From the UHGV virus genome UHGV-1963645: 64,000 nucleotides of DNA. One strand, given 5' to 3'. Shown piece after piece: positions 1,019 through 64,000 of the stretch. The first letter of the stretch is position 1. Each line of letters starts with the position of its first letter. The translations under genes and the position numbers were made by a program. The DNA is from a virus. The notes under the pieces were generated by a model. The model was not told the origin of the DNA and ran no database searches. It saw only the letters and a list, made by a program, of their open reading frames with translations.

Positions 1019-1048
1019 ACAAAAAAAGACGCTTTTGGCGTCTGTGTC
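1019..1048 (-). terminator. Intrinsic-terminator-like hairpin plus U-run (minus strand)
   Basis: Minus strand reads AGACGCCAAAAGCGTCT followed by TTTTTTT; 150 nt downstream of pacB stop; conserved in second immI copy at 51172-51200. Confidence 0.35.
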
Positions 1049-1175
1049 GCCTTTTGCATTATCCGGGGTCTCAATCCCGGCACCCGTTTTAATGAGGTGC
1101 CTGATAAGCATAAACCGAAAATGCCTCAAGGCGCAAGAGGTCAGGTTCAATGTAACATCGGTAGTTAAAAAACAC

Positions 1176-1194: not shown

Positions 1195-2679
1195 TCATTC
1201 GTTAAGCCATGCCAGAGCTTCATCAACCTGCGCTTCGTCTTCGACGCTAAGCACTTCATCCTGGGGAACATAATCCGCCAGCATAGCGAAACAATATGTA
1301 TCCCAATGGTCTGGTGAGTGCAGGTTGAGTTTTTTCTTCATATCCTCCTTACTCATCACCTTCCATTGACCTGCGGAGTTAATCCCTACAGGGATTTTCG
1401 ACGCTTCCTCAATAGTTTCATTACCCTTATCCAGTCTCATACGACCAGATTTTACGGCCTCTGCGGCTTGAACGTTGGCATAAGCACGTTTATCAAAGTA
1501 CAGGCTCTTATCTTCACGGCTATGCATCTTTTTACCCCAGCGTATACGCTGTACGGTAATACCATAATACTCGTACATCAGATCCGCCGTTGCTTTACCC
1601 AGGCCATCGCCGTCTATCGCTATGGTGATATTTGGGAATCGCTCAGGATTACATTCTGCGAAAATTTTGGCGGCAAGCTGCGTTTCTGTAACGTCTGTGT
1701 ATTCCAGCATTCGATAGTTGATTACACGGCGTTTATTTCGCTGGCCGGACACCATCATGATATTGATAACGGACTTATCCCGTCCCGTACCACCAGCAAC
1801 GTCCACACATGCAAGCCAGCCCCATCCTTTTGCAATCTTGACTTTCCGCCGCGTTGCACGTTCAACCTCATCACGTCCAAGAAGGAAGCCATCCTGTGAT
1901 TTAGGGAATAGGCCGCGTACCTTAATCATGTACATAGGGTTATCACGCCCGCCGTACTCCGCCAGCTTCATTTTGATAAATGCTGGCGTTACCAACGGTG
2001 ATTCCTCACTGTTAAGCGTGATCGCCGTATAAACGCCATCAGGGTTACCAGGACGCTTGGCCAGTTTATGGTGTGTATCGTAGAAATAGCCGCTTGGGCG
2101 TGTAGGCTGTGACAGCAATAAGATGCGGTTATCCTGTCCGGTAAGAGCACCGGTGATGATACCGAAAGCTCTATCACTGACACCGGAGGCTTCATCGATA
2201 ATATACAGAAGATGATCTGCGTGTTCACCGGCGAGAGCTTCTTCACTTCCCAGACGAAAGCCCTTCGGTACTACAGTCCATACACCTTTACCAGTAATCT
2301 CATAGAAAGCGGTTTCTGTCAGAACAAAATAATCAGCAAGCCATGGGAAACGGCTGGGGGCAGTAGCCCAGTTTATCTTGATGTACTTGAATATACCGGT
2401 CATTACCTGCTGAATTTTGTTCGCAACGATAATGGCACGGGCACCTGGATACATGATTATGAACAACATGATCATGATAGAAGTCATGTCTGATTTCCCG
2501 GTACCGTGACCAGACGAAACAGATGTCTTGCTACCCTGTTCCTGCACAGACTCAATAATCAGATCCTGCTGCCAGGTAGGTGTTTTGCCGAACAAAACAT
2601 CAGCGGCAGCAATCCAGTCATAACGATATAGCGCCACCAGCTCGCGCCAACGTGGATCCGTTACGCAACTTCTGGCCAT
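1195..2679 (-). CDS. pacB: Terminase large subunit PacB-like
   Basis: 494-aa ORF directly downstream of pacA with ATGA overlap; size and position match P1 pacB. Confidence 0.85.
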
Positions 2680-3872
2680 TAATCATCATCCCCGTATAGC
2701 TTGCGGGTAACTTCTTCGTCTTCCTCCTCGTCTTCGTCCAGGTCTTGTTCCAGCCATGGGTCGTTTGATACACCTTCAGTATCAACATCTCCATAACCGC
2801 CTGTATCAACGATATCGGCGATTTCTTCCCTACGCTGCTCAATCCACAATGCGGCATCGGCGCGGCGGTTGGCGGCCCGTTCTCGCGCAACTTTGTCCAG
2901 ATCTTCAAGAGAAGGGCCACCGACGGCTGTTTGCCTTTCCTCATCATCGGTATTGGTCTTAGGAGCACGCAGATCGGCTTTGATTTGCTCCAGCATCAGG
3001 GGCGGCACTTTTCCGCCATGCGCCTCGATGAATTCAGCTGCTTCCAGCACTGACCAGTTATTTTCACGCTTTCGTTCGTATGCCAGCTTAACAATGCCAG
3101 CTTGCCCCATAGATAAAGCGTGCTTTTCCGCCTCCCGGCTTTCTTTTCGATAGTTATTCCGGATGCTGTAAATGGTGTTGATCAGGCTGCTTATCTGCGC
3201 GGAACAGCTGTTTAGCATGCTCGCGATACGATATTCAGGCGGAGTCCCTTCATCATCGTCTTTTTGCTGATCGCGCATTTCCTGCACCAGACGAATACAC
3301 GTATCCCTGGCATTCTCCAGCATAAGGAGATGAGAAAGAGACTTTTCCAGAAGAGTGGTTTCCAGAACATCGGCCCCGGACCGACGCAACATAGCGCGCG
3401 CAGCCTTCCGCGCTTCAACGTTATCTATCAGGTAATCGCCAGCTTCGAATTCAAAGCGTTCACCATCATCATCCAGGGTGTCGCGTTCCAGGCGATCACG
3501 TAAGGTCCGGTGGGCGCGGGTGATCACGTCATGATCATCAGAACGATCATTTATGCGCTTATTTTGGCGCTTCGCATTCTCGACTGCGGCACTGACAACG
3601 GCATTAACCCTTTGTTTTTCCGCTATTTCAGCCGCAATGTGATCACCTGCATGTTGATCATTAGAGTGATCAATGATCATGCTTTTTAGTGGCTTCCTGA
3701 CTGGCTTATTTGGCTTGCGGCTGTCCGCTGTCCTGGTGTCTTCTTTGAAGGCACGGAGATAACGACGTGCAGTATTAGGGTTAAGATTAAACTCGGCGGC
3801 ATACTGTGCGATGGTGTAACCACCATCTCGCGCCAGGCGAGCAAAATTCTTCTTGTGATCGTCCCAGGTCAC
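2679..3872 (-). CDS. pacA: Terminase small subunit / pac-recognition protein PacA-like
   Basis: 397-aa ORF containing the clustered TGATCA/G hexamers characteristic of the P1 pac site within its coding sequence. Confidence 0.85.
3521..3682. other. pac packaging site (two clusters of TGATCA-type hexamers with embedded GATC)
   Basis: gtGATCAcgtcaTGATCAtcagaacGATCA at 3521-3550 and TGATCAcctgcatgtTGATCAttagagTGATCAaTGATCA at 3640-3680. Confidence 0.75.
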
Positions 3873-3957
3873 TTATGCTTCCTTTCGTAAAAACTCTTTT
3901 TGACGCGAGGGTAACGAAAGTCACATGTCAAAAGGCCCGGAACGGGCAAGCAATCAA

Positions 3958-4410
3958 TCAGATACGTGCGGATGTGGCATTACCGTAATGACGGTGCTGA
4001 CGGGCCACCTTATTGAAAAGTTGACGCGCCATTACCCAAGGCTGGTGCTCCCGGCGTTCCTTTTCGTCCTGCGTCATATAGAGTTCGTTCTGGAGTTTTT
4101 CATCAAACCGGCGCGGAGCGCGGCTACGGCGAAAGAATTCAGGATTCAGAGAGTGGATCTGAAATCTACGTGGGCGTGTACTGTCATCAATCAAAACAGA
4201 CGAATACTTAGACACAGCGATAGCCTTTAAGCGCAGATAAACATCGCGCTTATCGACATCCAGATGCGGGTATTCCTTTTCAAGAATTGCTGCGAGTTCT
4301 TTCGCTGATAGAAGAGATTTAGTGCGGATCATGTAATCCGCAATCTCGTACGATGTTATTCGTGAGTGATTTATTTCCATGAAGTGGCGTCCCTGCCAGT
4401 TAAGTAACAT
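3958..4410 (-). CDS. lpa: Late promoter activator Lpa-like
   Basis: 150-aa ORF immediately upstream of pacA in the position of P1 lpa; operator-like site upstream at 4481-4497. Confidence 0.55.
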   Translation of the reverse strand: MLLNWQGRHFMEINHSRITSYEIADYMIRTKSLLSAKELAAILEKEYPHLDVDKRDVYLRLKAIAVSKYSSVLIDDSTRPRRFQIHSLNPEFFRRSRAPRRFDEKLQNELYMTQDEKERREHQPWVMARQLFNKVARQHRHYGNATSARI

Positions 4411-4498
4411 CCTGTCACCTACTGATTAGCCCATGTCAACTAATCAACGTGGAATATAATACCCTCGATTAAAGAAATAGCAATACATTAGAGCAATT

Positions 4499-5542
4499 TT
4501 ATCTAACGCTCGACGAGTGACTTGTGATAGCGCCGACTCCAAGCGCGTAATCAAAGAACAATCGTTGATGCATCGCCAGCCTACCGTGCGTCTTCTCCCA
4601 ATTATCGCGGTCACGCTCAATATCACGCTGGCATGACTGGCACAGAGGAATTGCGTAAATGTCATGCGCGCATAATCGACTATGACGAACGATATAAGGC
4701 GTAATGTGAGCGCCAGCTCCCGCCGCTCCACACCCACAGCATGGACGGGAAGCAACAAAGTCCATGTACTCAGGTAATTTTAGCGATTGCAGTTTTGGTA
4801 TTTTGAAATGCGCCATGCCAGGGTCGGAGTCAACATCCACAGGGCATACTTTTGCACGCATCGGCGCGGCGCGTTCTTCCATCATCTGAACATATGCTGT
4901 AGCGCGATCGTCATACGGGCGAATATCCGCCTCTTTCAGAGGTCCGCTATCCTGCGTTGCGGCTTTCATCTTATTTATTGATATACGGCAAACTTCTTCC
5001 GGCATCAGGTGCATCATGTTGCGCATGAAAGCCCACCAGCACAGTTCCTGAATACTTAAATCATGGCCATCTGAAAGCCCCATTTCCTGACGGGCGACAT
5101 CCAGTATCCAGTTAACGCGATTATTATGCAGCGTTTCTTTCAGCTCATTAAAACCACGCATCCGGTAATGGTTATCGTGATGCCAGCACAACAACACCGC
5201 GCTATTGTCTCGTTCTGCGTGGACAATATGGTTGTCACACCAGCTACGATCTGCGGCCTGGCATTGCCCCTCTTTCCTGCGCAACCACGCCACCAGCGCG
5301 TCAATTCCACCAATACGGCGAAACAGTTCATCGCTGTTAAAAAACGGCTGCAACGCCTCATTTGTTGCCATAGTTTGCTCGGAAACAACGAGGCCGTCGT
5401 CCATGTGCTCGATTAACTCACGCGGCACCGGCTCCATAATAAATTTACGGCCAGCCTCCACCAGCTTTCTGACTTCCTGATCCACTTTGAATGTGGCGAC
5501 GCCAAGCTCTTTTTGTACAAAGGGAGTAATTATGGCTTTCAC
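4499..5542 (-). CDS. pdcB: PdcB-like protein (Cys/His-rich C-terminus)
   Basis: 347-aa ORF between the doc-phd operon and lpa; CCGCG...H...C..C motif cluster near C-terminus. Confidence 0.5.
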
Positions 5543-5569
5543 ATCACACCTTTAATCACTGATTGGGCT

Positions 5570-5770
5570 TTATCTGCTGCCCGGCATTCTCTGTTTAAGC
5601 ACAACCATTTCCTGACGGCATAACACAGCAATAGCGGTCCTGACTCCAATTTGCTTACCAACCAGGTATTGCTTTACCTTGCGGCGGCTCACGCCATCAA
5701 GAAGCATCTTTAACGCTTCACGGGACAACTTGTTGTATTTACGTGCCATTAATCTACTCCGCAGAACCAT
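5570..5770 (-). CDS. Small basic protein, possible HTH
   Basis: 66-aa ORF between doc and pdcB; start uncertain. Confidence 0.3.
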
Positions 5771-6134
5771 ACAATCTACGTAACGTGTCGGCGACAGAAG
5801 ATACAGATATCTCGCCAGTCGCAGCGCCTACGGTAAGGTCTGCCAGTTCAGGTGAATCAAATACCTGCACCCCGTTACGGCGTAGAAATAGCAGCGCACT
5901 GTTTAGCGCGGTACGCTTATTGGCATCATTGAATATATGCCCTCTCGCTGTAGCCACCAGGTAGGTGGCGGAGACTTCGAAAAGGTCGGTGATCTCTTCG
6001 TAGGCAACTCTGGCCTGAACTCTCCCGATAATGGCCTCTGCCCTACCCGGATCAGACATTCCCGGCAGGCCGCCGTAGCGGCTTATATTCGCATCATGAA
6101 GCGCAACAAGTTCTTCCGGTGATATATGTCTCAT
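5754..6134 (-). CDS. doc: Doc toxin (Fic-family) of phd-doc addiction module
   Basis: 126-aa protein MRHISPEEL...[19 protein letters not shown] matches recalled P1 Doc; overlaps phd stop. Confidence 0.95.
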
Positions 6135-6355
6135 TATCGGTTAACCAGTTCCTTGTTGGTGGAGTCCAGGGTGTCAAACAGGGATGCAAATTCAGCATCC
6201 AGCGCCGCTTTTTTGTAGGCTTCGAAAGTAGCCTTGCTGACAATTACTGCTGGCTCACGGCCTCTGCGGGTGATTTCAACCTCTTCCCCGGCTTCAACAT
6301 TGTTGAGCACTTCAGAAAGGTTGCCGCGCGCGGTACGGAAGTTAATGGATTGCAT
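6134..6355 (-). CDS. phd: Phd antitoxin
   Basis: 73-aa protein from [40 protein letters not shown]; immediately upstream of doc. Confidence 0.9.
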
Positions 6356-6427
6356 AAACACCTCGTGTACTCGTTATGTGTACACAATTATAAACTTCAC
6401 AGGCATAAAGCACCAGCACTTTGCAGC

Positions 6428-6817
6428 TTAAATAACCGGACAATCATCAAATTCCCCACTTCGGGCATCATTGATGACATGAGTGATCACACCAAAAACA
6501 GCATTACTGCCCGTGTATCCATCGTCATCTACTGGTAACGCCTCTTTCTTCCCGGTGCTTAAGTCCTCCAGGTGCTGGCGCGGATACTTCCTGTATCTCT
6601 TTATGCGATATTCACCCTCCATAGCGCACACAAGCAGAGAACCATCAACCGGAGTAAGCGAGGAATCAACCACCAGCAAAGCTCCCTGCAATATTCCCTC
6701 ACGGTGATGGCTATCAGCTGCCCGCATGAAGTAGGTCGCTGAAGGATGTCTAATTATCTGCTGATCAAGAGAAATTCGGCTTTCAACATAATCCGCCGCA
6801 GGAGAAGGGAAGCCCAT
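6428..6817 (-). CDS. humD: UmuD-like translesion synthesis accessory protein HumD
   Basis: 129-aa ORF with UmuD'-like peptidase-fold C-terminal region; LexA box 20 nt upstream. Confidence 0.8.
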   Translation of the reverse strand: MGFPSPAADYVESRISLDQQIIRHPSATYFMRAADSHHREGILQGALLVVDSSLTPVDGSLLVCAMEGEYRIKRYRKYPRQHLEDLSTGKKEALPVDDDGYTGSNAVFGVITHVINDARSGEFDDCPVI

Positions 6818-6837
6818 AGCGTTTTACCTCAATGATA

Positions 6838-6853
6838 CTGTTTATTCATACAG
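6838..6853. promoter_or_regulatory. LexA (SOS) box
   Basis: CTGTTTATTCATACAG fits CTGT-N8-ACAG, directly upstream of humD start. Confidence 0.6.
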
Positions 6854-6940
6854 TATACATTGAAAAGGCATAGTTTGTGAAAGCGGGGTTTGTAGGCGCG
6901 CCACGCTGGGGGCTAATCACATTTCTCCCCCATCTTGCCG

Positions 6941-7192
6941 TTATTTTTTTGGTGCATCCTCGTTCTGATACACCGGATCGCTCCCTTTTGGCAACTGGAG
7001 GCTTAACTGCCGGTAGTGCCGTAGCCGTTCCATGAAATAGGCGCGCAGGTTTTCCGGTTGCTCACGGGCCACCTGCTCTGCAATCACAGGTATATTCAGC
7101 CGTTCTTTGTAAGCAACGCCGCTGGCGGCAAGGTCTACGTTCACCTTGTCTCGCTCTTCCTGGCTTTTAGCTGCTATATTTCGATCTGACAC
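6941..7192 (-). CDS. hot: Homolog of DNA polymerase III theta subunit (HolE-like)
   Basis: 83-aa protein ...[43 protein letters not shown]... resembles E. coli HolE. Confidence 0.8.
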
Positions 7193-7559
7193 AAGAAACC
7201 TCCAGGAGTTAGTGGATCAGGCACATGCACAATAACGTTCTCAATGTTAGCCGTTCAATTCAGACAATCAGAGACTGCACCAGTGTGGTGGCATCAATCC
7301 CATTGCGAAACAGCATAGACGAACTGCAAATTCGTGTATTGAATCCGAATCAGGCTAATAAGCAATTGCGCTTTATTTTGACGCTGAAAAGTGAAACAGA
7401 GGGGATAAAGCACAGCGTAAAAGTGTTTTCTGAGGCCATTCTGCTTAATGGGAAGCTCCGGCATCTGGTAAGGCCAGAACGTCAATATCCTGACGTCCTG
7501 GCGCGTGAAAAAGACCTTCTTTCTGAAGTTCAGGATAGGGTGATCGATTTCGTCAAATG

Positions 7560-7925
7560 CTATCCCCTGCATTGAGGGCAGGTGTTCCCTTCCGCAAAGT
7601 AGGGAAAATTGCTATCAAGTTCATCACACCATCTGCGATGGTCGTAGCACCAAAACGCCTCCCACGGTGCACGGAAATACTTCATCCACCAGGACACTCG
7701 ATCAGGTATATCTGCTGGTGGCAGTTCTTCTGGCAATAATTTGCCTGATAATTCCCTTTCCGCCCGCGACAGCATTTTTTTGAGGCTCGCGTTCTCTTTT
7801 TCAAGCTCATCTACGCGCACCTGTAATTCAGCTTTCGTTGGCATGGTCCACCTCATGCTTTTCAGCCACCAGCGGCAATAAAGCCCTGGCCATCTTATGA
7901 ACCAATAGTGCATCAATAATGCCAA
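7560..7925 (-). CDS. Hypothetical protein (probable internal start MPTKAELQ...; coiled-coil then Cys-rich C-terminus)
   Basis: ORF in minus-strand block; start ambiguous; overlaps end of upstream gene. Confidence 0.3.
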   Translation of the reverse strand: MALLMHYWFIRWPGLYCRWWLKSMRWTMPTKAELQVRVDELEKENASLKKMLSRAERELSGKLLPEELPPADIPDRVSWWMKYFRAPWEAFWCYDHRRWCDELDSNFPYFAEGNTCPQCRG

Positions 7926-8910
7926 GCGTATGCCCCGGCTTAATGTTTAATGCCGCCTCAAGGCGACACCTTTCCAGGCCACTTTTCTCGGCTTGTTTAT
8001 GATGATCTGGTGTAATAACGTCGCCCAAAACACGGCTAATTCTTTCTCGTAATTGCTGGGTGCCAGCACACTTGATCGCTGTATCGTGGAGACGGTTAAC
8101 CAGTTCGCGATAAACATGCGGCTTAATTCGGATACGTTCACCGGTGACGCCCTTTCCTGGTGCTGGCACCGAACTATCCGGAATATCCGGATAGTTGCCA
8201 GCCAGTCTACGCAAAACAGCCTTAACAGCCTCAATACGGTCATCATCGCAACTTTCCAGCGTATCTATGCGATCGAGCATGATGATGGCGTTATCAATAT
8301 CAGGATTGCCGGTCCACTCATTACCGCGATTGGATTCGGCAGTCTGGTTGCCGCGTACTGGTTGATTCTCGGCTTTACCCTGTCTGTCGTTGCTGCATGA
8401 ATGCCCTTCCAGCCAGACCAGTGCTTGTCGCATGAAATACGCAATATGCTTGCCGTGGTAATCGTCTTCATCGATGTGAAAAGCGATACTGCGGATATAT
8501 TCAATTGCGTTTTCAATGGCCTCTAACGCTATCGGTGCTGGCGGAGTGGTATATAGTTTTCGACATTTGTTTATCCAACCGGCATGGTCAGGCGTGTCTG
8601 TAAAGCGCAAATCGTCTTCGTAGCACTCACGACTTCGTTCTTTCCATTCCGTCCACGGAACACCGCTATTCCAGGTGGGACGAGTGCAGGACTGATACAG
8701 AACAGGCTCTGCTTCCAGTGATGCCAGTGCAATCCGTGCCAGCTCACGCACAACTTCCGGCGGCGCGTAACGGTCATTCAGGTCATCCCACAGGCGTAGC
8801 ATGTTATCGCTACCAGGGTGAACATCCTCGTTAGTTCCGGCCAGCGCACTAATAACCTCATCGGCTGCTTCAATAATTTTCTGTGCCTGTTCTCTGGTAA
8901 TAGTGGTCAT
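7828..8910 (-). CDS. Hypothetical protein, member of MTTIT N-terminal paralog family
   Basis: 360-aa ORF; N-terminus MTTITREQAQKIIEA...ELARIALASLEAEP shared with 9343-9738 and 9946-10410. Confidence 0.6.
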   Translation of the reverse strand: MTTITREQAQKIIEAADEVISALAGTNEDVHPGSDNMLRLWDDLNDRYAPPEVVRELARIALASLEAEPVLYQSCTRPTWNSGVPWTEWKERSRECYEDDLRFTDTPDHAGWINKCRKLYTTPPAPIALEAIENAIEYIRSIAFHIDEDDYHGKHIAYFMRQALVWLEGHSCSNDRQGKAENQPVRGNQTAESNRGNEWTGNPDIDNAIIMLDRIDTLESCDDDRIEAVKAVLRRLAGNYPDIPDSSVPAPGKGVTGERIRIKPHVYRELVNRLHDTAIKCAGTQQLRERISRVLGDVITPDHHKQAEKSGLERCRLEAALNIKPGHTLGIIDALLVHKMARALLPLVAEKHEVDHANES

Positions 8911-8920
8911 TTGTTATGCC

Positions 8921-9118
8921 TCAATACACGAAATCTGTTTTAAATTCATGGTTACATTCTGGACAGCATGTTTCGTAACCTTTTATTTCTTCACATGCCT
9001 GTTTAGCTCCAGAAAACTCCCAGAAATCAGCATCACAAAGCAGATCGAAATTGTGACCGCATTTTGGGCATTCGGTATCAAGTGACAGATTCCAGTAAGC
9101 AGTGGTGTTTTTATCCAT
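8921..9118 (-). CDS. Small zinc-ribbon protein
   Basis: CPKCG...CCPECNH motif pairs; inner start MDKNT abuts next gene. Confidence 0.45.
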   Translation of the reverse strand: MDKNTTAYWNLSLDTECPKCGHNFDLLCDADFWEFSGAKQACEEIKGYETCCPECNHEFKTDFVY

Positions 9119-9119
9119 A

Positions 9120-9341
9120 TCAGTCTCCTTTACCCGCTGCTTTCTCCTGCTCTTTAGCAAGCCGCTCCGCTTCTCTGAAATCCCAGTCAACTCGACGTGC
9201 TATATCAATTGCAGAACGCACGGTACGTTCAATTAGCGTATCCAGATTATCGATTGTCATTGCCATATCTGGATTGCGAGATAAAATCTCCGCCCTCTGA
9301 ATCTGCCAGTTGTTGCAGGTTTCAAGTAATGAGTTAGCCAT
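9120..9341 (-). CDS. Hypothetical small protein
   Basis: Tightly packed in operon (inner start MANSLL abuts neighbours). Confidence 0.4.
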   Translation of the reverse strand: MANSLLETCNNWQIQRAEILSRNPDMAMTIDNLDTLIERTVRSAIDIARRVDWDFREAERLAKEQEKAAGKGD

Positions 9342-9342
9342 A

Positions 9343-9738
9343 TCACTTTCCTTTCCCATGAAGCATAGCCGCGCGGCAGGCATTCCAGCCTCTCACCTCT
9401 GCAATAGCGGCAACAGCATCAACCGCGTACATGCTAAGAGGATTAGGCATTGGTTTTTCTTCCGGTACTACTGGCGCTGGAGGGGCGGCGTAAATACCCT
9501 CTATCACTAAATGTTTGCGCTCAAAATCATCTGGCTCTCGATGATATACGTAACTCCAATCACCAAGGTTATCATTGCGCCTGCAACGGAAACCTATCGG
9601 CTCGACTTCCAGCGCTGCCAGAGCAATTCGTGCCAGTTCTTCCGCTTCTTCTGCTGGCAGTACAACGTTGCTACCAGGTCCGTATGTTTCGCGCCACTGC
9701 TTGATTGTCAGCAGTCGCTCTTTGGTTATAGTGGTCAT
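9343..9738 (-). CDS. Hypothetical protein, MTTIT family
   Basis: N-terminus MTTITKERLLTIKQW...EELARIALAALEVEP paralogous to 7828-8910. Confidence 0.6.
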   Translation of the reverse strand: MTTITKERLLTIKQWRETYGPGSNVVLPAEEAEELARIALAALEVEPIGFRCRRNDNLGDWSYVYHREPDDFERKHLVIEGIYAAPPAPVVPEEKPMPNPLSMYAVDAVAAIAEVRGWNACRAAMLHGKGK

Positions 9739-9944
9739 TTGTTAATCCTCAAAACTTTATGCCCGGGCGCAAAAGCACGCGTTTTGTCTTTGCTTATTCG
9801 CCAGCCATCCTTGCGCGCCTCTTTTGCACAGCCAGCCCATGACGTACCGATATACTCACCGAAGTCTGGCACTGGATATACACCTTCCGTACACTGGCGG
9901 CAGTCACAATAGAGATGCATTGTGTAACTTGCGGCAATAGCCAT
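9735..9944 (-). CDS. Small Cys-rich protein
   Basis: 69-aa ORF with CDCRQC motif; 4-nt overlaps on both sides. Confidence 0.45.
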   Translation of the reverse strand: MAIAASYTMHLYCDCRQCTEGVYPVPDFGEYIGTSWAGCAKEARKDGWRISKDKTRAFAPGHKVLRINK

Positions 9945-9945
9945 A

Positions 9946-10410
9946 TCACCCTCCTTTACCCTGAAGCATGGCGTCGCTCCGCTCTATACTATCCAGCGCG
10001 ATTCGCAGTGCCTGAATTGTGGTAGTGCTATCGTTTGGGGCTATTCCATATCGCTCGAATACAGCTAAATGGTTGCGCATAATCTCAGGCGTAAGCTCTT
10101 TGTAAGCATAAGCAAGAGGCTCTGATGCATTATCCGGCACAACCGACGCAGGCGCGGCAGCATAAACAGGAATAACGTCCGCTTGCTCTTTATTGCTTTC
10201 ATCCGTTAAAGCCCAGAATAATTTCCCGGCCGGATGTTTGAAAATATAAGCAACTGGTTCTGCACTATCAGCTTCGCGCCGCTTCTGTAGCTCTGCTGCC
10301 ATTGCTCTCACGACTTCAACTGGTGCCCTTGCAGCAAACTCTATGTTGGTGATCAGCTCATTAAGATATTGCTCGCTGGGATACTGTTTCTTATTGGTAA
10401 TAGTGATCAT
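9946..10410 (-). CDS. Hypothetical protein, MTTIT-related family
   Basis: N-terminus MITITNKKQYPSEQYL...VEVVRAMAAEL resembles the two paralogs. Confidence 0.55.
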   Translation of the reverse strand: MITITNKKQYPSEQYLNELITNIEFAARAPVEVVRAMAAELQKRREADSAEPVAYIFKHPAGKLFWALTDESNKEQADVIPVYAAAPASVVPDNASEPLAYAYKELTPEIMRNHLAVFERYGIAPNDSTTTIQALRIALDSIERSDAMLQGKGG

Positions 10411-10922
10411 GCCGCGTTTCCTTCTTTCTTATTAACAATTACACCGTCATATATTTCATTAAGGTGCCCTCTCAACTCCATGCGCCTTAATGCAGATAAC
10501 ATGTAATCGCATTCAACCTGCTTATTTCCAGTAAATGGCTTATCGTCAGGATTACCCCAACAGCAATTACCCTTGGGCCACCCATGTACTTTCCGTACTC
10601 TTCCGTTAACAACGTGAAGTAATCCCCAGCCAGGTGGTAAATCCTCAATTGAAATAATTCCCGGCTCACTAATAAAGAATCGCCAGTCGCCCATTCCAAG
10701 AGACGGATTTTTACGGAAACGCTTTTTTCTATCTGCCAACAAGTCAGCACGAGAACACTTCGCCTCTATCAAGCATGATGCTGAACTTCTGAATCCCATA
10801 GCATCTGGCTGTTCTCCGGTGCTGGTTACAGCTATAAAGCGGTCATGAAAGCAAACCTTGAACCCGTTGCGCTTAAGGAACTTGTACGCAATCTGACAGA
10901 GTTCGCGGTGTGTTAACGCCAT
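10407..10922 (-). CDS. Hypothetical protein (possible nuclease-like fold)
   Basis: ORF with inner start MALTHRELCQ that abuts next gene at 10924. Confidence 0.45.
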   Translation of the reverse strand: MALTHRELCQIAYKFLKRNGFKVCFHDRFIAVTSTGEQPDAMGFRSSASCLIEAKCSRADLLADRKKRFRKNPSLGMGDWRFFISEPGIISIEDLPPGWGLLHVVNGRVRKVHGWPKGNCCWGNPDDKPFTGNKQVECDYMLSALRRMELRGHLNEIYDGVIVNKKEGNAA

Positions 10923-10923
10923 C

Positions 10924-11118
10924 TCACTCTCCTTTAGTGCGCAGATAACAGTGGTTTTTCCAGCGGTTTTGCGCCGCGCTGGGCTTTTTGCAAAAACCAC
11001 AATCCATCATCCCGTAATATTTCATCAACCCCATCCGTCGGTTGCTGAGTCTCACCCACTGCCAGACGCCAGGAGCGTTTCTACGAACTAACAGAATCTT
11101 TGCTTTACGGTTTTTCAT
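10924..11118 (-). CDS. Small basic Cys-containing protein
   Basis: 64-aa ORF packed against the downstream gene. Confidence 0.3.
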   Translation of the reverse strand: MKNRKAKILLVRRNAPGVWQWVRLSNRRMGLMKYYGMMDCGFCKKPSAAQNRWKNHCYLRTKGE

Positions 11119-11290
11119 CGCTTTGCTCTCCTGCGTCTCTTTGCTGCTCGTCGTGCCGCTGCAATACCGGTATGGCGGCGCTTTGGTGCCGGGATGATGT
11201 TGTCAGCCATCAGGACATGTGGCTTTGCAATTAGCGCAGAAGCCCAAAAACGAGTCGGGTACGGTAACAAGCCGATACATGCCACACGCA

Positions 11291-12013
11291 TTACTCACCT
11301 CCTTTGATGCGAATGCCTGCGGCGCGGATTGCAGCGATGACTTCAGAAACTTTGTATGCCATTACCGTTTGGTAATCATCGTGAAAATCTGTTCGATGAA
11401 GCATGCTGCTACGTTCCGGGAGCGATATTTCCCGAGCATCCAGTTCCTTAACGCGTTCCTCCAGTTCGTAGACCCTGCATTGTTCTCTATCATCAATCAG
11501 ATATAACCCAAGACATTCGCTTTCTACCCAACCGCCAAAATCATGATCGTAACGCTCACATGAAAACTCACCGTCACCGTCCTTTGTTGGAATGGTGTAA
11601 CTATCTAATGGGCCACCATATGTCGGCACATTTCCCAATGTTGGATGCTCAATCCACATGAAAAATGCACGTCCGGTTATTGGGCAAATATCTGGCCGCC
11701 ATTGGTTACGAACAGCCTTGGTTTCGGATAATTCTTCAGCGTGTTGTTTTACTTCCTCAAGCTCAACTCTCAGCTTCCCTACCGTTAGCGCAATATCCCC
11801 GTTCTTTCTTTCCCGTTCATCCAGCAGCGCCAGCACGGTTTCTGGTCCGGTCAGAAATTTGAAGGCGTTGAGCGCATCAATATCCACACCGTAATCTTTA
11901 AGTTCCTGTTCACTTAACAAATCATCATCAGCTGGCAACATTAACAGGCGTTCCATTGCTGGAATTGCACGTTCCGCCGCCTCACGCAGTGCCTGGTAAT
12001 TAATTTCGCTCAC
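11291..12013 (-). CDS. Hypothetical protein (paralog pair with 12010-12675)
   Basis: N-terminus MSEINYQALREAAERA vs MARMTIDYQVLREAAEQA in neighbour; 4-nt overlap. Confidence 0.6.
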   Translation of the reverse strand: MSEINYQALREAAERAIPAMERLLMLPADDDLLSEQELKDYGVDIDALNAFKFLTGPETVLALLDERERKNGDIALTVGKLRVELEEVKQHAEELSETKAVRNQWRPDICPITGRAFFMWIEHPTLGNVPTYGGPLDSYTIPTKDGDGEFSCERYDHDFGGWVESECLGLYLIDDREQCRVYELEERVKELDAREISLPERSSMLHRTDFHDDYQTVMAYKVSEVIAAIRAAGIRIKGGE

Positions 12014-12675
12014 TGGTTGCCTCCTTTGCGAAGCTGGGCAGCAAAGTCAACTAACCACTCAGTCATTTCAACCTTCCCTACCAGGTCTGAACCAGGGTGC
12101 ATACAGCAATCACTCTGCGCCGCTTTGAAATCCTTATACTCATATTCTTGGGCCACCAGATTTTTTGCAGCTTCTATAGCAGCATCCACCCCCTGCGCCC
12201 GCACTTCAGACAGGAAAGCATCGGTAGCTGGAGTTTCGCTGTGGTGCAGGGCATCGTTGATAATCATTGCAGCAACTCCGGCCTGCCCTGCATCCGTGAC
12301 CGACACATGCTCAAGAGTTACGGCCATTGCGTGTTTCAGCCCAGCGTTCTCCGCCACCAGCGCCGCGAGATTAGTCTCAAGCTCTGCAATTCGACACATA
12401 GCATCAATATTTGTGTCCTCCAGGCGCTTAATTTCATCCAGTAGAGCCAGCACAACTTTGGGTGGGATAGCCGCGATATAACGGGCATTGGCACCAGCGT
12501 TTCTCTGTCCATCAATGCCAGGCCAGTCAATAAAGTATCCGCAATGCCTACCCTCAGACGTATGCGCAGGATAAGTGCCGTTTTGCCCCGGCAAAATATA
12601 TGCTACCCATTCATCTTGCGTTGCCTGTTCCGCCGCCTCGCGCAGTACCTGATAGTCAATTGTCATTCTCGCCAT
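12010..12675 (-). CDS. Hypothetical protein (paralog pair)
   Basis: Shared N-terminal motif with 11291-12013; ALLDEIKRLE coiled-coil segments in both. Confidence 0.6.
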   Translation of the reverse strand: MARMTIDYQVLREAAEQATQDEWVAYILPGQNGTYPAHTSEGRHCGYFIDWPGIDGQRNAGANARYIAAIPPKVVLALLDEIKRLEDTNIDAMCRIAELETNLAALVAENAGLKHAMAVTLEHVSVTDAGQAGVAAMIINDALHHSETPATDAFLSEVRAQGVDAAIEAAKNLVAQEYEYKDFKAAQSDCCMHPGSDLVGKVEMTEWLVDFAAQLRKGGNQ

Positions 12676-13307
12676 CCTTCACAGTTGTAATCACTACAGC
12701 CTTCAAAATCATATGGGCTGTACTGCCAGGTGATTTTTCCGCAATGCGGACAATTCCAACGCACCTTCCCGCTTCGCGACTTCTTTCTTCTGTTCTGCTC
12801 TTTCAACCAGTCAGGCATGACCAAACCTGCGCCCTGAACCATTGTTCTGCGGTTAAAGTTATTGATATTGAACGTCCGGCGCTTTGCTGCATCAGCAATG
12901 GAAAATGGCAACCAAACTATTCCTGGTTCGTTTTTGTTGGCGACGCTAAAGATGGTCGCTTTACTGAAGTCATCTGTTGGCAATCCACCGTGTTGAAGCC
13001 AGTAAACATCGTTGCCGTTCCAGCTACCTTTTTTGTAGGCCACATACGCAGTGCAATCTGACTCAATCAGGCTTTCTGTAGGGATGTACTGGCAATCAAC
13101 GTGCCACACAGCCATTGCATCCACACTATCGGCACAAACAGGCTGATCGATATCTCGCCCACAACTCCAGGCTTTTTGGGCTTCTTCCAGCGTGTAAACA
13201 TGAGCGCGATCGATATCAGAACTGTAACCATTGCCGTTATGGCAATGGAATGAGGCGTTATTACCCACAGTTTCACGCAAGCACATCATGTAAAAGCGGT
13301 TATTCAC
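12663..13307 (-). CDS. Hypothetical Cys-rich protein
   Basis: 214-aa ORF with C-terminal CPHCG...C..C zinc-ribbon-like motif. Confidence 0.5.
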   Translation of the reverse strand: MNNRFYMMCLRETVGNNASFHCHNGNGYSSDIDRAHVYTLEEAQKAWSCGRDIDQPVCADSVDAMAVWHVDCQYIPTESLIESDCTAYVAYKKGSWNGNDVYWLQHGGLPTDDFSKATIFSVANKNEPGIVWLPFSIADAAKRRTFNINNFNRRTMVQGAGLVMPDWLKEQNRRKKSRSGKVRWNCPHCGKITWQYSPYDFEGCSDYNCEGWRE

Positions 13308-13584
13308 TGGTTGCCTCCGCTTCCCACGTTTTCAGACTTTCACCACAGAACGGGCAAAATGAAACTCGAATAGGCGATTTAGAAAATTCACCAGACCGCA
13401 GCATGATCAGGTCTTGTGAATGAATTAATTCATGGTTATAGATTTTGTATTTCAGCAGACCTTTTCGCGTCGTGTATTCAGCGTCATGCTCCAGGGATTG
13501 TGCCAACGCCGCGCACGGTTCTATCTTGTTGCCATTAATTTGGCATTTTGACTCACTCACTGGTTGCCCCCTGAATACGCTCAA
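13300..13584 (-). CDS. Small zinc-ribbon protein
   Basis: 94-aa ORF with CPFCG motif. Confidence 0.4.
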   Translation of the reverse strand: MSVFRGQPVSESKCQINGNKIEPCAALAQSLEHDAEYTTRKGLLKYKIYNHELIHSQDLIMLRSGEFSKSPIRVSFCPFCGESLKTWEAEATSE

Positions 13585-14293
13585 ACTCGATTACCCACAC
13601 CCAGGGATTAGCGTTCCAGCTTTCTTCACCATAGATGGATTCCCACAGGCGCTGGAACGCAACCTTGGCCATTGCGAAATCTCCCTTGGGAGTTAGGAAT
13701 GTTCCCGGGTGATCAGGAAGCAAACTTCCAGCAGGCTGAACGCCCTCATCCCTTGCATCGCATTCGCTGATATCGTTCAACCGCTCAACGCGCACGTTGG
13801 TAATTTCCAACAGAATGCGTGATGCCCATCGCGGCATGTGAATTGATGGACGCCACCCACCATCAAACTTTTCATTCACAGTGTGAGGTTTCCAGTCGGC
13901 ATCATCGGGTATCGACCATAAACCGTAATCACCAGGCTTTTGCTCACAACTGGCCCGATAAATCCTTGCTGCGTTCTTCTCATCGCCACGACAAAGGTTG
14001 TCGTTCCAGTCCACACTGCAACCATCTTCATTGCCTAATATCGCCCATGTTTCACGAACCCAAATTCGATCGCCGACGATACCAAAGGGGCAATTGAAAA
14101 CACTGCTTACACCATCAGCCCCGTACCACTGAAAACCTGCACCAATTTTTCTAACCATCACTGGTGCTTCTGGACCAACTTCCGCAGGCTGATTTTTCAT
14201 TATCCGCCGCGTCTGCGTTTTCCTTCCTTCGAGGATGGCCCGGACCATCTCATCGTTGAAAATCATGCCGCGCTCTTTCACTTCGCCTTTCAT
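13553..14293 (-). CDS. Conserved phage protein (MIFNDEMVRAILEGRKTQTRR N-terminal motif)
   Basis: 246-aa ORF; first gene downstream of the operator at 14472-14488. Confidence 0.55.
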   Translation of the reverse strand: MKGEVKERGMIFNDEMVRAILEGRKTQTRRIMKNQPAEVGPEAPVMVRKIGAGFQWYGADGVSSVFNCPFGIVGDRIWVRETWAILGNEDGCSVDWNDNLCRGDEKNAARIYRASCEQKPGDYGLWSIPDDADWKPHTVNEKFDGGWRPSIHMPRWASRILLEITNVRVERLNDISECDARDEGVQPAGSLLPDHPGTFLTPKGDFAMAKVAFQRLWESIYGEESWNANPWVWVIEFERIQGATSE

Positions 14294-46649: not shown

Positions 46650-46820
46650 GAGTCATCCCTTGTATTTTAAAGCTCCTTCGGGAGCTTTTTTTATAACTAT
46701 TTTATATAAACATGCATCGATAACATTGTCTGGAGTTTTATGTTAGATTATTAATGTTCTAATAAACTACAATTATTGAGGTAGATGTTTGTGCCTGTAC
46801 TGTTAAAGGGGGACTCTAAA

Positions 46821-47417
46821 ATGGCTGTGATTCCAATGTCGTACTCCCCGGGTACTGTCGCTCGTCGATTTTCGATCCTGGACGGAGTTACCATCCAGGG
46901 TGTGCTTTACCAGGTTATATGGGATTCCAAAACCCCATTTGCAGCTGTAATAGAGGCTGCGCCTTCTGTTATCGATGGTGATATGCGGCATAAGGTTGTC
47001 GCTACTCTTGAACTTCAACGTCGCCCGCAGCTTGAAGGCGTACTGGTAAGGAAGTTCTGGGAGGATAGCGATGTTGCCCAGATTGAAGGTATCGTGGTTG
47101 ATGGAACTGTCCGGGATGTCGGTTTAGCTACTTTTGTTTACGAAACCGTAGCCTCAAAAGCTGGTGTTGTTTTGCTCAGTGATAATGAGCAATACGAAGG
47201 TGGAAAAGCTCTTTGGCAACATATCGCCCGTCGCTCTTCCGAGCTAAAAGTGTTTATCCTCGACACCGATGCCGCTCAGTATTACCCGTTTGACGGCGAA
47301 CGTGTTTGCTATGACGGGGTAAGTATTCCTGAATCCGAGATATGGAGTGAACACCCAGATCGAAGTAAGCATGGGGTTGTTCTGGTCGCTGAATCCATAA
47401 TTGGAAATGCGGCATAG
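46821..47417 (+). CDS. Hypothetical protein
   Basis: Start at ATG after AAGGGGG RBS. Confidence 0.5.
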   Translation: MAVIPMSYSPGTVARRFSILDGVTIQGVLYQVIWDSKTPFAAVIEAAPSVIDGDMRHKVVATLELQRRPQLEGVLVRKFWEDSDVAQIEGIVVDGTVRDVGLATFVYETVASKAGVVLLSDNEQYEGGKALWQHIARRSSELKVFILDTDAAQYYPFDGERVCYDGVSIPESEIWSEHPDRSKHGVVLVAESIIGNAA

Positions 47418-47599
47418 CAGTAAAAAATTCCTTGCTCCTTAAAATGGGAGAGGGTTAATCTACGTATGCTAAGCATAGATATGGCCTCAGATTAATGTTA
47501 AGCGTCTTGCAGGACGCGTAATGTTATCTGGGGCTTTCTTCTATCTGCTTTTCGGGTAATGCCTGAAGCAGATAGCCTCAAGCACCCGCAACGATTGTA

Positions 47600-47926
47600 T
47601 CAATGTCTGGCTTTTTTTCTATAGAAATCACCTGGAAGGGTGAATATCCACATCAGAAGAAATGTAGCAGCAAACATGATCCCTAATGGCCAGACCGCGC
47701 CAAAGAAAATCCATACTAAGATCTCCTCTGCTCGTTCTTTGCGGTCGATATCGACAAGCATTTTTCGGCTGATCATGTATACACAGAAGCCAATACAAAC
47801 ATATCCTGCAAAAGCGATCGCTAACTGTAAAAAATCAGATTGCATCTCCGACCTCAAACTGAAAACGCCAGGTGACTCCAGATTAGAGCAATCTATCACC
47901 CTCTGAATCCTGCCGGTATACCCCAT
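47600..47926 (-). CDS. Small membrane protein downstream of repL
   Basis: Hydrophobic 2-3 TM ORF; start uncertain. Confidence 0.3.
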   Translation of the reverse strand: MGYTGRIQRVIDCSNLESPGVFSLRSEMQSDFLQLAIAFAGYVCIGFCVYMISRKMLVDIDRKERAEEILVWIFFGAVWPLGIMFAATFLLMWIFTLPGDFYRKKARH

Positions 47927-50772: not shown

Positions 50773-50990
50773 AAACCCCCCTGAACGTCGGCAGAGAAGG
50801 GGAGGCTCCAGTAACTAAGTGAATTGCGCGAGTTAGTTGAAAAACGGGCAGTAAAAATGCAGGGGCCATCAGGCAATTGAGAGCGTGCTTCGTCTTCTGT
50901 TGCTGCGATAACGAAGTGATAGTGGTGTTTTTGGCAGGAGTAAAAGCGCCAGATAAATTCAGGATGAGTAGGGGTAGGGATAGTAGCCAC
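50769..50990 (-). CDS. icd: Icd-like protein (second copy)
   Basis: 73-aa ORF near-identical to 614-835 copy. Confidence 0.65.
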   Translation of the reverse strand: MATIPTPTHPEFIWRFYSCQKHHYHFVIAATEDEARSQLPDGPCIFTARFSTNSRNSLSYWSLPFSADVQGGL

Positions 50991-51054
50991 AATGGCAGCC
51001 TCCTTTTGCTAATTTAAGGAGCTACCGCGTGAGGTTCCAATCTCAATGGCGGTA

Positions 51055-51165
51055 GCACTGACTGGGTTGGAACTACCGGCGCAAAAGGGAACCGGCCTGC
51101 CTTTCGGCAGCCCAGCCAGCACTACCATTGATCTCGGAGCTATGTGCTACGTATGGTTGTGCGAT
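51055..51165 (-). ncRNA. c4: c4-like antisense RNA (second copy, different predicted specificity)
   Basis: Same architecture as 900-1010 with paired substitutions GGTCTCAA->GGTTCCAA and TTGAGACT->TTGGAACT. Confidence 0.4.
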
Positions 51166-51487
51166 GGCATGACACAAAAAAAGACGCTTTTGGCGTCTAT
51201 GTCGCCTTTTGCATTATCCGGGGTTCCAATCCCGGCATCCGTTTTACTAAGATGCCTGTTTAGGATAAACCGAAAATGCATTAGCACGCAAGCAAGTTAA
51301 TGTAGCATATGAAGCTAAAAAAATAAAATAATTAGAGCAACTTGCAACCATGTAAATTATTTCTCTGGTAACTAAAATGTATGAGTTTAATTGATATGGG
51401 TCAAAGATTTTGACCATTGCATGGTGAAACTTTATGCTACAAAATGTTATTTTAAGGCGTTTTATCTGTGGCAGGAGATAGTTAATC

Positions 51488-51838
51488 ATGTCATCTGAAC
51501 ATGTTCGTAAAGGTGTAACAAATGCGAAATTCAATGAAGAGCAATCTAATATTCTCTTTATTGAAATAGGAATTCTGTCAATACTGATAGGTTTAATGTC
51601 TAAATCATGGTGGGCCTTTGGCGGTTCTTTTCTTGGACTGATTTTTAGTTTAAGAATAAAATTTCTAGCAATACCATTGATGATTGTATTTAGCTTAGTA
51701 TGGGGAGCTATTGGCTATAGTATTGGTACTTTGTTTGAATCAACAGCAGCAAGTATTGTTTTGGGGGTAATTGCTTTCCTGAGTGGTTTGGGTACTCATT
51801 TTGCTGCCGTGCAATGGGCAAATGATATTGCAGAATAA
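51488..51838 (+). CDS. Small three-TM membrane protein (AT-rich cassette gene 1)
   Basis: 116-aa ORF with three hydrophobic helices; AGGAG RBS. Confidence 0.5.
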   Translation: MSSEHVRKGVTNAKFNEEQSNILFIEIGILSILIGLMSKSWWAFGGSFLGLIFSLRIKFLAIPLMIVFSLVWGAIGYSIGTLFESTAASIVLGVIAFLSGLGTHFAAVQWANDIAE

Positions 51839-51860
51839 TTACAGATAAGAAGCGAAAAGA

Positions 51861-52337
51861 ATGAATATGAGATGGTTTTTATTATTTGTATCGTTAGTTT
51901 CAGCAGGAACATTTGCAAAAATTGATCCTCTACAATGGAATGTAATTGAAGAGAGAGGGGGGAGAGAATATACAATCCATAATCATAATGGTGATAAGAT
52001 AAGTTTTTTATGTGATATGGGATTCATGTATGGTTCACCAGATAGTGCAGGTAGTTTAGGCTTGTTGCTAAGTTCGTCGAATAATAAAAAAGAGTATAAT
52101 GCTGACAAGAATAAAATAGTATTAACTATAGATGGTGATCAATATCCTTTTAGCAATCTTGGATCAATGGTTGGAGATTCTTGGTGGTATGCCTTTTGGC
52201 AAGATGCAGCAGATTCAAATGCTAATATGATTGATGCTTATGTTGATAATGAAAAAATTGCTACATTCCCTCTTTCTGGGCTAAGTAAGTTGTATCAACA
52301 AGCCAAAATGGATGGATGTATTAAACGAGGCAAATGA
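51861..52337 (+). CDS. Secreted/periplasmic protein (AT-rich cassette gene 2)
   Basis: Signal peptide MNMRWFLLFVSLVSAGTFA; 158 aa. Confidence 0.5.
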   Translation: MNMRWFLLFVSLVSAGTFAKIDPLQWNVIEERGGREYTIHNHNGDKISFLCDMGFMYGSPDSAGSLGLLLSSSNNKKEYNADKNKIVLTIDGDQYPFSNLGSMVGDSWWYAFWQDAADSNANMIDAYVDNEKIATFPLSGLSKLYQQAKMDGCIKRGK

Positions 52338-52411
52338 TCTTTCTGTGTTAAAGATTAACGCAATCAATAAAACATTGGTTGCGTAATATTCTATTATAGA
52401 AATGGAATAAT

Positions 52412-53446
52412 ATGACAAAAATTACTAATTCTAATGAGTTGAAGTTGCTGTATAAACAGTCAGTGCTCATTCCATCATACAAAGATCACGTAGCGATCTT
52501 GCAAAAACAATTAGGAATAGAAAAACATTCTTTTCAAAATATGCCAAGATTGAATAGACAAGCTGTAATTAGTAACTCTCTTCGAAAACAATTGGCTAGT
52601 ATACCGAACTTGGCTGGAATAGGCAGCAAGTATCGTGAACATATCGCGATTTTACAGAAACAGACTCAGGCTCTTTTCCCTCATGATGCAAATAGATATA
52701 TTCAAATGCTAAGGAAACAGGCCGAAATAGCTATGCCATTACGAAAACAGCTTGAGGTGCTTAATAAGCAAGCTGGTTTAAATAACATGCAAGCGATACT
52801 TAAAGAATTACAACAAAGTGCAAGTTATAAAATAGATGTAAGCCAAGACATAAAGAAAGTACTAGATCACTATGCTAGAACAAGAAATGCTTCATTACAT
52901 CAAATAATAGAGCAGGGGATTTCATCTATTGCGCAGGCTTATGCTGAAGGTGCTACTGAAACATCACACACCAAAAGTAATGTTCAAAATAAAGGATTAA
53001 ATAAACCTAGCTCAAAGTTTGTTGATTCATTTAAAGAGCTTCCTTATCCACTGCAATGGTTACTAATGGTTATATTTTCTCAAGTTGTGTTTGGTGCTTT
53101 TATTGATTACGGAAAAGAGAAAACCTTGCTGGGAATACACAAGGCAGAATCATATTTTATATCTCTGTTTGAGGATAAACCAATATCAAAACAACAATTA
53201 ATTAAAGAAAACAAAGAAATTAGTTGGGAAGATCTCAATGGTTTTCGTTTTATAACTGGTGAGAACGTAAGATTACACGTCAGTCCTTCTATAAATAGTG
53301 AGGTGATTGAATGCATTGGCAAAAATACTATAGTGGCTGTTTTAGATAAAAAAGATCGCCAATGGCTTTTCGTGCAGGTTAAATCAGGGGACGAGTTTAT
53401 TACTGGATGGATTACACGAACATACACAAAGCCTCTTAAGGCTTGA
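52412..53446 (+). CDS. Membrane-anchored protein with C-terminal SH3-like domain (AT-rich cassette gene 3)
   Basis: Internal TM (WLLMVIFSQVVFGAFIDY), N-terminal repeats (HVAILQKQ/HIAILQKQ), C-terminal SH3b-like segment. Confidence 0.5.
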   Translation: MTKITNSNELKLLYKQSVLIPSYKDHVAILQKQLGIEKHSFQNMPRLNRQAVISNSLRKQLASIPNLAGIGSKYREHIAILQKQTQALFPHDANRYIQMLRKQAEIAMPLRKQLEVLNKQAGLNNMQAILKELQQSASYKIDVSQDIKKVLDHYARTRNASLHQIIEQGISSIAQAYAEGATETSHTKSNVQNKGLNKPSSKFVDSFKELPYPLQWLLMVIFSQVVFGAFIDYGKEKTLLGIHKAESYFISLFEDKPISKQQLIKENKEISWEDLNGFRFITGENVRLHVSPSINSEVIECIGKNTIVAVLDKKDRQWLFVQVKSGDEFITGWITRTYTKPLKA

Positions 53447-53575
53447 ATTTTATCACCGTATCTTGGGGCTGGGTGTTGATGACGATGTGCTACTTGAAGT
53501 ACTTGGGTTTTTTAACGCAGCATCTGAAATGTGTAGACTGACCGGTAACAAATGACAACTCGTAGAATCGGGTAA

Positions 53576-62334: not shown

Positions 62335-63984
62335 ATGAATGACGTTACAGTTGTTACATCGGTTACTTACCCATCACCCGAGTCGTTGGCTCTGGTGGCT
62401 GATGTGCAATACCACGAACCATATCTGTCAGCCGCTCTAAACCGAAAATTCAGGGGAATTGTTGACCCGGGATTTTATGCTGGTTTCTTGCCTAAGCCTG
62501 GCGGTGGAATGAACCTGTTAATCACCTCAGTGGATGGAGATAAAACCGCTGGCGCGGCGTCAGTGGATATTGGTGAATTCTACCAGGTAACTATTCAGCA
62601 TCGTAAGGATATCTCTCTTGCACTTAACGCAGGCAAGAAATATGCAATTGTGCTGAAGGGAAGATACCTTCTTGGAGAAGATACCTATCAGGTGAATACC
62701 GCGTCACATATTCATGCAGCTGAATTTGTTGCCAGAACCTATACCGATTCATATCAGTTAGGTGATGGGGAACTGCTGGTTTGTACGGTGAATATCCCTG
62801 CTGGCGTATCTACCATTACTCAAGAGATGATTGATACATCCGAGCGTATCAACCGCACGATCGGCATTGATATTTCAGACTCTGTAACCAGTACCAGAAG
62901 TGATGTTGCTGCGAGTTCGCTGGCAGTTAAAAAAGCCTACGATCTGGCGAAAAGCAAGTATACGGCGCAGGATGCAAGCACAACGCAAAAGGGATTAGTT
63001 CAGCTCAGTAGTGCCACTAACAGCACGTCCGAAGTGCTGGCCGCCACACCGAAAGCTGTCAAGGCTGCATATGACCTGGCTAACGGGAAGTATACAGCCC
63101 AGGATGCAACCACGACACAAAAAGGGATAGTTCAGCTCAGTAGCGACACCAACAGCACTTCTGAAACATTAGCTGCAACTCCAAAAGCGGTTAAAGCTGC
63201 ATACGATCTAGCAGCCGGAAAGGCACCATCCAGTCATACACATCCCTGGAATCAGATCACTGGTGTGCCAACAGCTTCATTGACAGCGAAAGGCATCACT
63301 CAGCTCAGTAGTGCCACTAACAGCACGTCCGAAGTGCTGGCCGCCACACCGAAAGCTGTCAAGGCTGCATATGATTTGGCTAATGGAAAGCAAGCGGCAG
63401 ACGCTACGCTCACTGCTCTAGCGGCACTAGCTACAGCAGCAGATAAACTCCCTTATTTCACAGGTGTTGATCGTGCCGCGTTAACTGCATTGACAAGTGT
63501 TGGACGCGCCATTCTTGGTAAGACCAGTATTCAGAGCGTTCTTGATTACCTTGGTTTGGGGGAAGGCTCTGCATTGCCTGTTGGTGTGCCCGTTCCGTGG
63601 CCCTTAGAAACACCACCAACTGGCTGGCTAAAATGCAATGGTGCAGCATTTTCTTCTGAAATGTATCCCAAACTGGCAAAAGCCTACCCCACCAATAAAT
63701 TACCGGATTTACGCGGTGAATTTATCCGTGGCTGGGATGATGGGCGCGGGATTGATGCGGGACGTACCCTGCTTTCAGGGCAGGATGGTACAAGTTTTTC
63801 TCATTACGGAGGTAATTTCGACATTGGGTCTGGTCATTCAATCAATAACTATGACCAAATTGTTTCTAACCAACCAGGATTTTCCCGTTTTTCATTTGCA
63901 GGGCCTTCACGAGGTGATGGGGTTAATTATGTAACCATTCGTCCTCGTAACATTGCGTTTAATTATATCGTAAGGGCGGCATAA
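62335..63984 (+). CDS. Tail-fibre-like protein with tandem repeats
   Basis: Start MNDVTVV after AAGGA; four copies of ...TNSTSE(V/T)LAATPKAVKAAYDLA... Confidence 0.6.
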   Translation: MNDVTVVTSVTYPSPESLALVADVQYHEPYLSAALNRKFRGIVDPGFYAGFLPKPGGGMNLLITSVDGDKTAGAASVDIGEFYQVTIQHRKDISLALNAGKKYAIVLKGRYLLGEDTYQVNTASHIHAAEFVARTYTDSYQLGDGELLVCTVNIPAGVSTITQEMIDTSERINRTIGIDISDSVTSTRSDVAASSLAVKKAYDLAKSKYTAQDASTTQKGLVQLSSATNSTSEVLAATPKAVKAAYDLANGKYTAQDATTTQKGIVQLSSDTNSTSETLAATPKAVKAAYDLAAGKAPSSHTHPWNQITGVPTASLTAKGITQLSSATNSTSEVLAATPKAVKAAYDLANGKQAADATLTALAALATAADKLPYFTGVDRAALTALTSVGRAILGKTSIQSVLDYLGLGEGSALPVGVPVPWPLETPPTGWLKCNGAAFSSEMYPKLAKAYPTNKLPDLRGEFIRGWDDGRGIDAGRTLLSGQDGTSFSHYGGNFDIGSGHSINNYDQIVSNQPGFSRFSFAGPSRGDGVNYVTIRPRNIAFNYIVRAA

Positions 63985-64000
63985 AAACGTTGGTTTGGGA

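Follow-up and report, generated by a model that had tools for sequence, protein, structure and literature searches.

The window analysed here, a 64-kb stretch (64,000 nucleotides) of the virus genome UHGV-1963645, carries a phd-doc operon on its minus strand at positions 5754-6355, made of two abutting open reading frames (ORFs) that together span 602 nt. The antitoxin gene phd comes first (6134..6355, minus strand) and encodes a 73-residue Phd protein, assigned as antitoxin and autorepressor from its matches to PDB 3HRY and PF02604. The toxin gene doc lies directly downstream (5754..6134, minus strand) and encodes a 126-residue Doc toxin of the Fic-fold kinase type (3K33, PF02661). The two genes meet in the sequence TAATG, in which the phd stop codon TAA (6136-6134) and the doc start codon ATG (6134-6132) have one base in common. 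Both reading frames are intact and full length, Phd ending in KELVNR and Doc in RLYGSAE, and the ORF calls agree to the base with the coordinates given for the operon in the first-pass annotation. A longer form of phd starting from a GTG at 6361 (ORF 6134-6361, 75 aa) was rejected; this GTG falls inside the Shine-Dalgarno region, and it is the 73-residue form, beginning with the ATG at 6355, to which the crystallised P1 protein is an exact match.

The proteins encoded by the operon are almost indistinguishable from those of phage P1. Phd is identical to P1 Phd at 73 of 73 residues (3HRY, E = 1.6e-42; also 3K33 and 4ZM0), and its residues 51-73 correspond exactly to the Phd peptide in a co-crystal with Doc (3DD7 chain B), leaving the C-terminal Doc-binding segment intact. 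The N-terminal DNA-binding and dimerisation domain (residues 1-51) matches PhdYeFM_antitox (PF02604) with 49.8 bits, against a Pfam cut-off of 29.8 bits. Doc aligns end to end with P1 Doc at 125 of 126 residues (3K33, E = 4.4e-78; also 3DD7 and 3KH2) and matches the Fic/DOC family (PF02661) with 36.9 bits, above the 24-bit cut-off. Its sole substitution is I10V (GTT/ATT), a conservative change that does not fall in the Fic motif; no other property sets the present copy apart. At the DNA level, the operon differs from P1 (NC_005856) at 4 of 602 nt, and a megablast search with positions 5600-6500 returned 21 phage records with 97-99% identity, all of them P1-like and all annotated doc/phd. By these comparisons, the match to P1 phd-doc is far beyond chance. 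The first-pass annotation had claimed a close match to the P1 sequences, and alignment with P1 phd and doc, the check it named, yields high rather than low identity (99.3% for nucleotides, 100% for Phd and 99.2% for Doc).

The Fic motif of Doc is intact in the translation, reading H66-I-F-N-D-A-N-K73-R74 (residues 66-74), and agrees with the consensus for Doc kinases, HxFx(D/N)(A/G)NKR (PMC4177925). The lysine at motif position 8 stands where AMPylating Fic proteins have glycine, and its presence leads to ATP being bound in an inverted orientation, so that phosphate instead of AMP is moved to the target (PMC4177925). In P1, Doc phosphorylates EF-Tu at Thr382, which leads to translation arrest (PMC4803016); PMC4177925 and PMC4803016 credit the EF-Tu kinase activity of Doc to Castro-Roa 2013 and Cruz 2014. 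With 99.2% identity to P1 Doc, the protein encoded here is likely to have the same EF-Tu Thr382 kinase activity. The earlier description of Doc as a Fic-family kinase is thus consistent with the PF02661 score of 36.9 bits and the HIFNDANKR motif as regards the family, and with near-identity to P1 Doc as regards the predicted kinase activity.

The regulatory DNA upstream of phd is the same, base for base, as that of P1, including the promoter, the operator palindromes and the ribosome-binding site; phd together with 85 nt upstream is P1-identical, and all four nucleotide differences fall within doc. The promoter Pphd (6387..6415, minus strand) consists of a -10 box TATAAT (6392-6387) and a weak -35 box TGGTGC (6415-6410). 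It was placed by means of the P1 annotation, in which the -10 and -35 boxes lie at L001 6787-6792 and 6810-6815, and its positions in the window follow from the exact, constant offset of 400 bases and the 100% identity of the upstream region. Pphd escaped a generic sigma-70 scan, since its -35 box agrees with the consensus at fewer than 4 of 6 positions. Two palindromes separate the -10 box from the start of phd. The one beside the -10 box (6377..6386, minus strand) is a perfect 10-bp palindrome, TGTGTACACA, 100% complementary and P1-identical, and the one closest to phd (6364..6373, minus strand) is an imperfect palindrome, CGAGTACACG, symmetric at 8 of 10 positions and likewise P1-identical. 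The 6364..6373 site forms a GTGTAC/GTACAC inverted repeat together with the neighbouring palindrome. Going by the P1 literature, we take TGTGTACACA (6377-6386) and CGAGTACACG (6364-6373) to be the two Phd operator sites, which are putative in this element. In addition, a putative Shine-Dalgarno sequence, GAGG (6361..6364, minus strand), can be read 5 nt ahead of the ATG of phd.

The single non-synonymous change relative to P1 Doc raises the question of whether I10V has disabled Doc or the operon is unexpressed, which would make this copy a silent or inactivated relic. The other three differences are synonymous (Arg2 AGA/AGG, Thr101 ACC/ACT and Gly103 GGC/GGA), as purifying selection would give, and the full-length frames, the Fic motif, the promoter, the operator and the ribosome-binding site are all unchanged. 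In addition, the same 667-nt sequence occurs at 100% identity in four entries of a plasmid collection (NZ_CP100671, NZ_CP116091, NZ_OP242269 and NZ_CP117715; 89-99 kb), whose hosts are E. coli and Salmonella, and unchanged in two more E. coli plasmids of 92-94 kb in a genome collection. Human, duck and river sources are represented among the isolates whose plasmids conserve the allele at 100%. Because the frames and motifs are intact, most of the changes are synonymous and the allele is unchanged in plasmids from unrelated sources, an inactivated relic appears very unlikely, and it is the least probable of the readings weighed here. A further reading is a functional shift: the Doc I10V allele, which is found here in a sub-lineage of P1-like phage-plasmids with a non-P1 replicon, might differ in toxicity, Phd affinity or operator control, and could then be tuned to another copy number or loss rate. 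The module does serve a replicon other than that of P1, but nothing observed in the window points to altered behaviour of V10 Doc, and we regard such tuning as improbable.

The surroundings of the operon are those of a P1-like plasmid prophage. Gene order around it is humD-phd-doc-pdcA-pdcB, as in P1 and SJ46: according to Pfam and the P1/SJ46 annotation, a UmuD-like Peptidase_S24 gene corresponding to P1 humD lies upstream of phd, and the small ORF pdcA followed by the gene for PdcB, a DUF968 protein, lies downstream of doc. The whole 64-kb window is collinear with the P1-like phage-plasmids RCS47, JL22, SJ46, P7 and P1, with RCS47 covering 82% of its first 25 kb and 99% of its second 25 kb. 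It encodes a Rep3-type RepA of 294 aa (36735-37619) and P1-like ParA (38890-40086) and ParB (40103-41104) proteins, and contains three P1-type tRNA genes. The stretch 1197-6865, which includes the operon, is 93.0% identical to P1 overall and 98.2% identical to SJ46; for phd-doc alone, identity to P1 reaches 99.3%. Either the addiction module is therefore more conserved than its pac, lpa and pdcB neighbours, or the block 1197-6865 is mosaic.

Among 5426 complete E. coli genomes, phd-doc is found at no less than 80% coverage in 1226 and with any match in 1233, and 1245 of the 1331 matching places are on plasmids. The claim of the first-pass annotation that the module enforces plasmid-prophage retention fits both this distribution and the P1-like backbone with RepA, ParA and ParB. 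A competing view is that the module is intact but mainly benefits its carrier as an abortive-infection-type phage defence or through a part in stress responses or persistence, with post-segregational killing not its chief role. Phage defence and persistence are among the roles proposed for type II toxin-antitoxin systems in reviews (e.g., PMC10532202), and PMC9207808 ties Salmonella Doc to persisters. The ParA/ParB partition system and the probable remnant of a second killer system (see below) would also allow the element to be retained without sole reliance on phd-doc. However, the locus bears no defence-specific feature, in genes and regulatory DNA alike it is the P1 module, and the E. coli copies are overwhelmingly plasmid-borne. 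For that P1 module, Lehnherr et al. in 1993 (cited in PMC4803016) reportedly described the addiction phenotype and defined the phd-doc system. A chiefly defensive or persistence-related role is accordingly improbable, if somewhat less so than an inactivated relic. We consider it highly probable, at about 96%, that a P1-like plasmid prophage carries here its canonical phd-doc operon, a type II toxin-antitoxin (addiction) module; this reading draws on sequence identity and genomic context, and no feature of the sequence speaks against it.

For an addiction operon of this kind, the best explanation is likely the published P1 mechanism, because nothing in the locus departs from the studied P1 system. 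The steps concerning repression, neutralisation, ClpXP and killing by Doc are taken from published work on the P1 proteins, and expression, toxicity, neutralisation, proteolysis and stabilisation would be expected here by virtue of identity to P1. Transcription from Pphd would yield one message from which both phd and doc are translated, a coupling that the observed layout suggests. In P1, the N-terminal domain of Phd serves for repression and the disordered C-terminus for neutralising Doc, and a rising Doc:Phd ratio switches Doc from co-repressor to de-repressor, a behaviour known as conditional cooperativity (PMC4803016). Since Phd and the operator are 100% identical to those of P1, Phd dimers would similarly bind the two palindromic operators overlapping the promoter and repress it, with Doc acting as a co-repressor at low Doc:Phd ratios and as a de-repressor at high ratios. 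The disordered Phd C-terminus would fold onto Doc and block it as long as the antitoxin is supplied. Phd is reportedly a ClpXP substrate, a finding attributed to Lehnherr and Yarmolinsky in 1995 (a reference of PMC4803016), and the identical Phd encoded here is likely to be equally labile. If so, cells that lose the prophage would lose Phd first and be arrested by Doc: in a daughter cell lacking the plasmid prophage, Phd would be degraded by ClpXP without replacement, and the stable Doc would be freed. Because Lys73 replaces glycine in its Fic motif, Doc would bind ATP in the inverted orientation, and the freed toxin would phosphorylate EF-Tu at Thr382 and arrest translation. Cured cells would then stop growing or die, and the element would be retained in the population.

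Several segments of the window are unlike P1. A local blastn comparison of the window with positions 30000-79999 and 81901-94800 of P1 NC_005856 found no match, within these parts of the reference, for the segments 1-1196, 7181-7862, 8204-13598, 27858-28953, 36529-38790, 46692-47881, 50964-53546 and 63082-64000; the window segment 16882-18782, likewise unmatched, corresponds to a part of P1 (about 80000-81900) that lies outside the compared reference and is uninformative. The segment 36529-38790 is the replicon, whose RepA has no megablast match to P1 oriR/repA/incA, and an ORF of 269 aa with a T5orf172 domain (37912-38721) lies between repA and parA. The segments 7181-7862 and 8204-13598 make up some 6 kb of accessory DNA that P1 lacks, with a hot-like theta-subunit gene (6941-7192) on one side and the pmgT region on the other. 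This accessory DNA encodes two Ead/Ea22-like proteins (11291-12013 and 12010-12675), which probably account for hundreds of matches to Stx-converting phages, as well as several ORFs without a Pfam match; the lxr gene of P1 is missing. The segment 27858-28953 adjoins a tRNA-Met(CAT) gene where P1 has tciA-C, 50964-53546 lies in the c4-upstream/sim region, and 63082-64000 lies in the variable part of the tail fibre.

The more unusual features of the window are the non-P1 replicon, a second C4 antisense-RNA module and a hok/sok remnant. Rfam identifies two pairs of C4 antisense RNA and isrK-like elements, one in its customary place at immI (51045-51132 and 51177-51255, minus strand) and the other next to pacB (890-977 and 1022-1100, minus strand). 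In P1, c1 is directly adjacent to pacB at the place where the second pair sits here, and in JL22 an antirepressor-like gene, 'roi', followed by c1, is annotated beyond the pacB-side point. Identity between the two C4 copies is about 92%, and paired swaps, GAGAC/GTCTC versus GGAAC/GTTCC, set them apart. The c4 RNAs of P1 and P7 differ by compensatory specificity changes. The paired swaps seen here look like those changes, and by this analogy the element may carry two heteroimmune C4 antirepressor circuits.

The hok/sok feature is a match to the sok leader model RF01794 (47413-47587, minus strand), scoring 97 bits in Rfam against a gathering score of 59. It lies downstream of repL and of an ORF encoding a membrane-like protein of 108 aa, and P1 has rlfA/rlfB in its place. 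No Hok-like peptide follows the terminal AUG of the RF01794 model in any frame, and the space for hok is filled by a convergent ORF of 210 aa (46785-47417, plus strand). The match was therefore rejected as a second working killer system and is probably the remnant of one. Pfam gave no match for RepL or PacB, nor for either of the two ORFs (108 aa and 210 aa) next to the sok match.

By its presence, the module identifies the window as a P1-type phage-plasmid whose addiction system is intact, and this bears on the persistence of these elements, frequent carriers of resistance genes, among populations of E. coli and Salmonella. Beyond its correct annotation, this copy of phd-doc matters little and touches no open question; it is the known prototype system, carried here by a close relative of P1, and every defining feature that sequence can show is present.

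Compared with the P1 phd-doc operon (NC_005856; PDB 3HRY, 3K33, 3KH2 and 3DD7), the present copy has the same promoter, operator, Shine-Dalgarno sequence, one-base overlap and neighbours, and differs by the four nucleotide changes in doc (I10V and three synonymous). The element that carries it is a mosaic relative of P1 with another plasmid replicon and other accessory segments. The phages SJ46, RCS47, JL22 and P7 carry the locus at 97-99% identity, and together with about 1,250 enterobacterial plasmids they show no notable difference from it; SJ46 has I10 in Doc and a synonymous change in phd, unlike the present copy. Chromosomal Phd/YefM-Doc systems such as those of Salmonella Typhimurium and Streptococcus pneumoniae (PMC4257102 and PMC9207808) comprise the same two protein families in the same operon order. 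However, these are distant chromosomal homologues, whereas the copy described here is the plasmid-prophage prototype.
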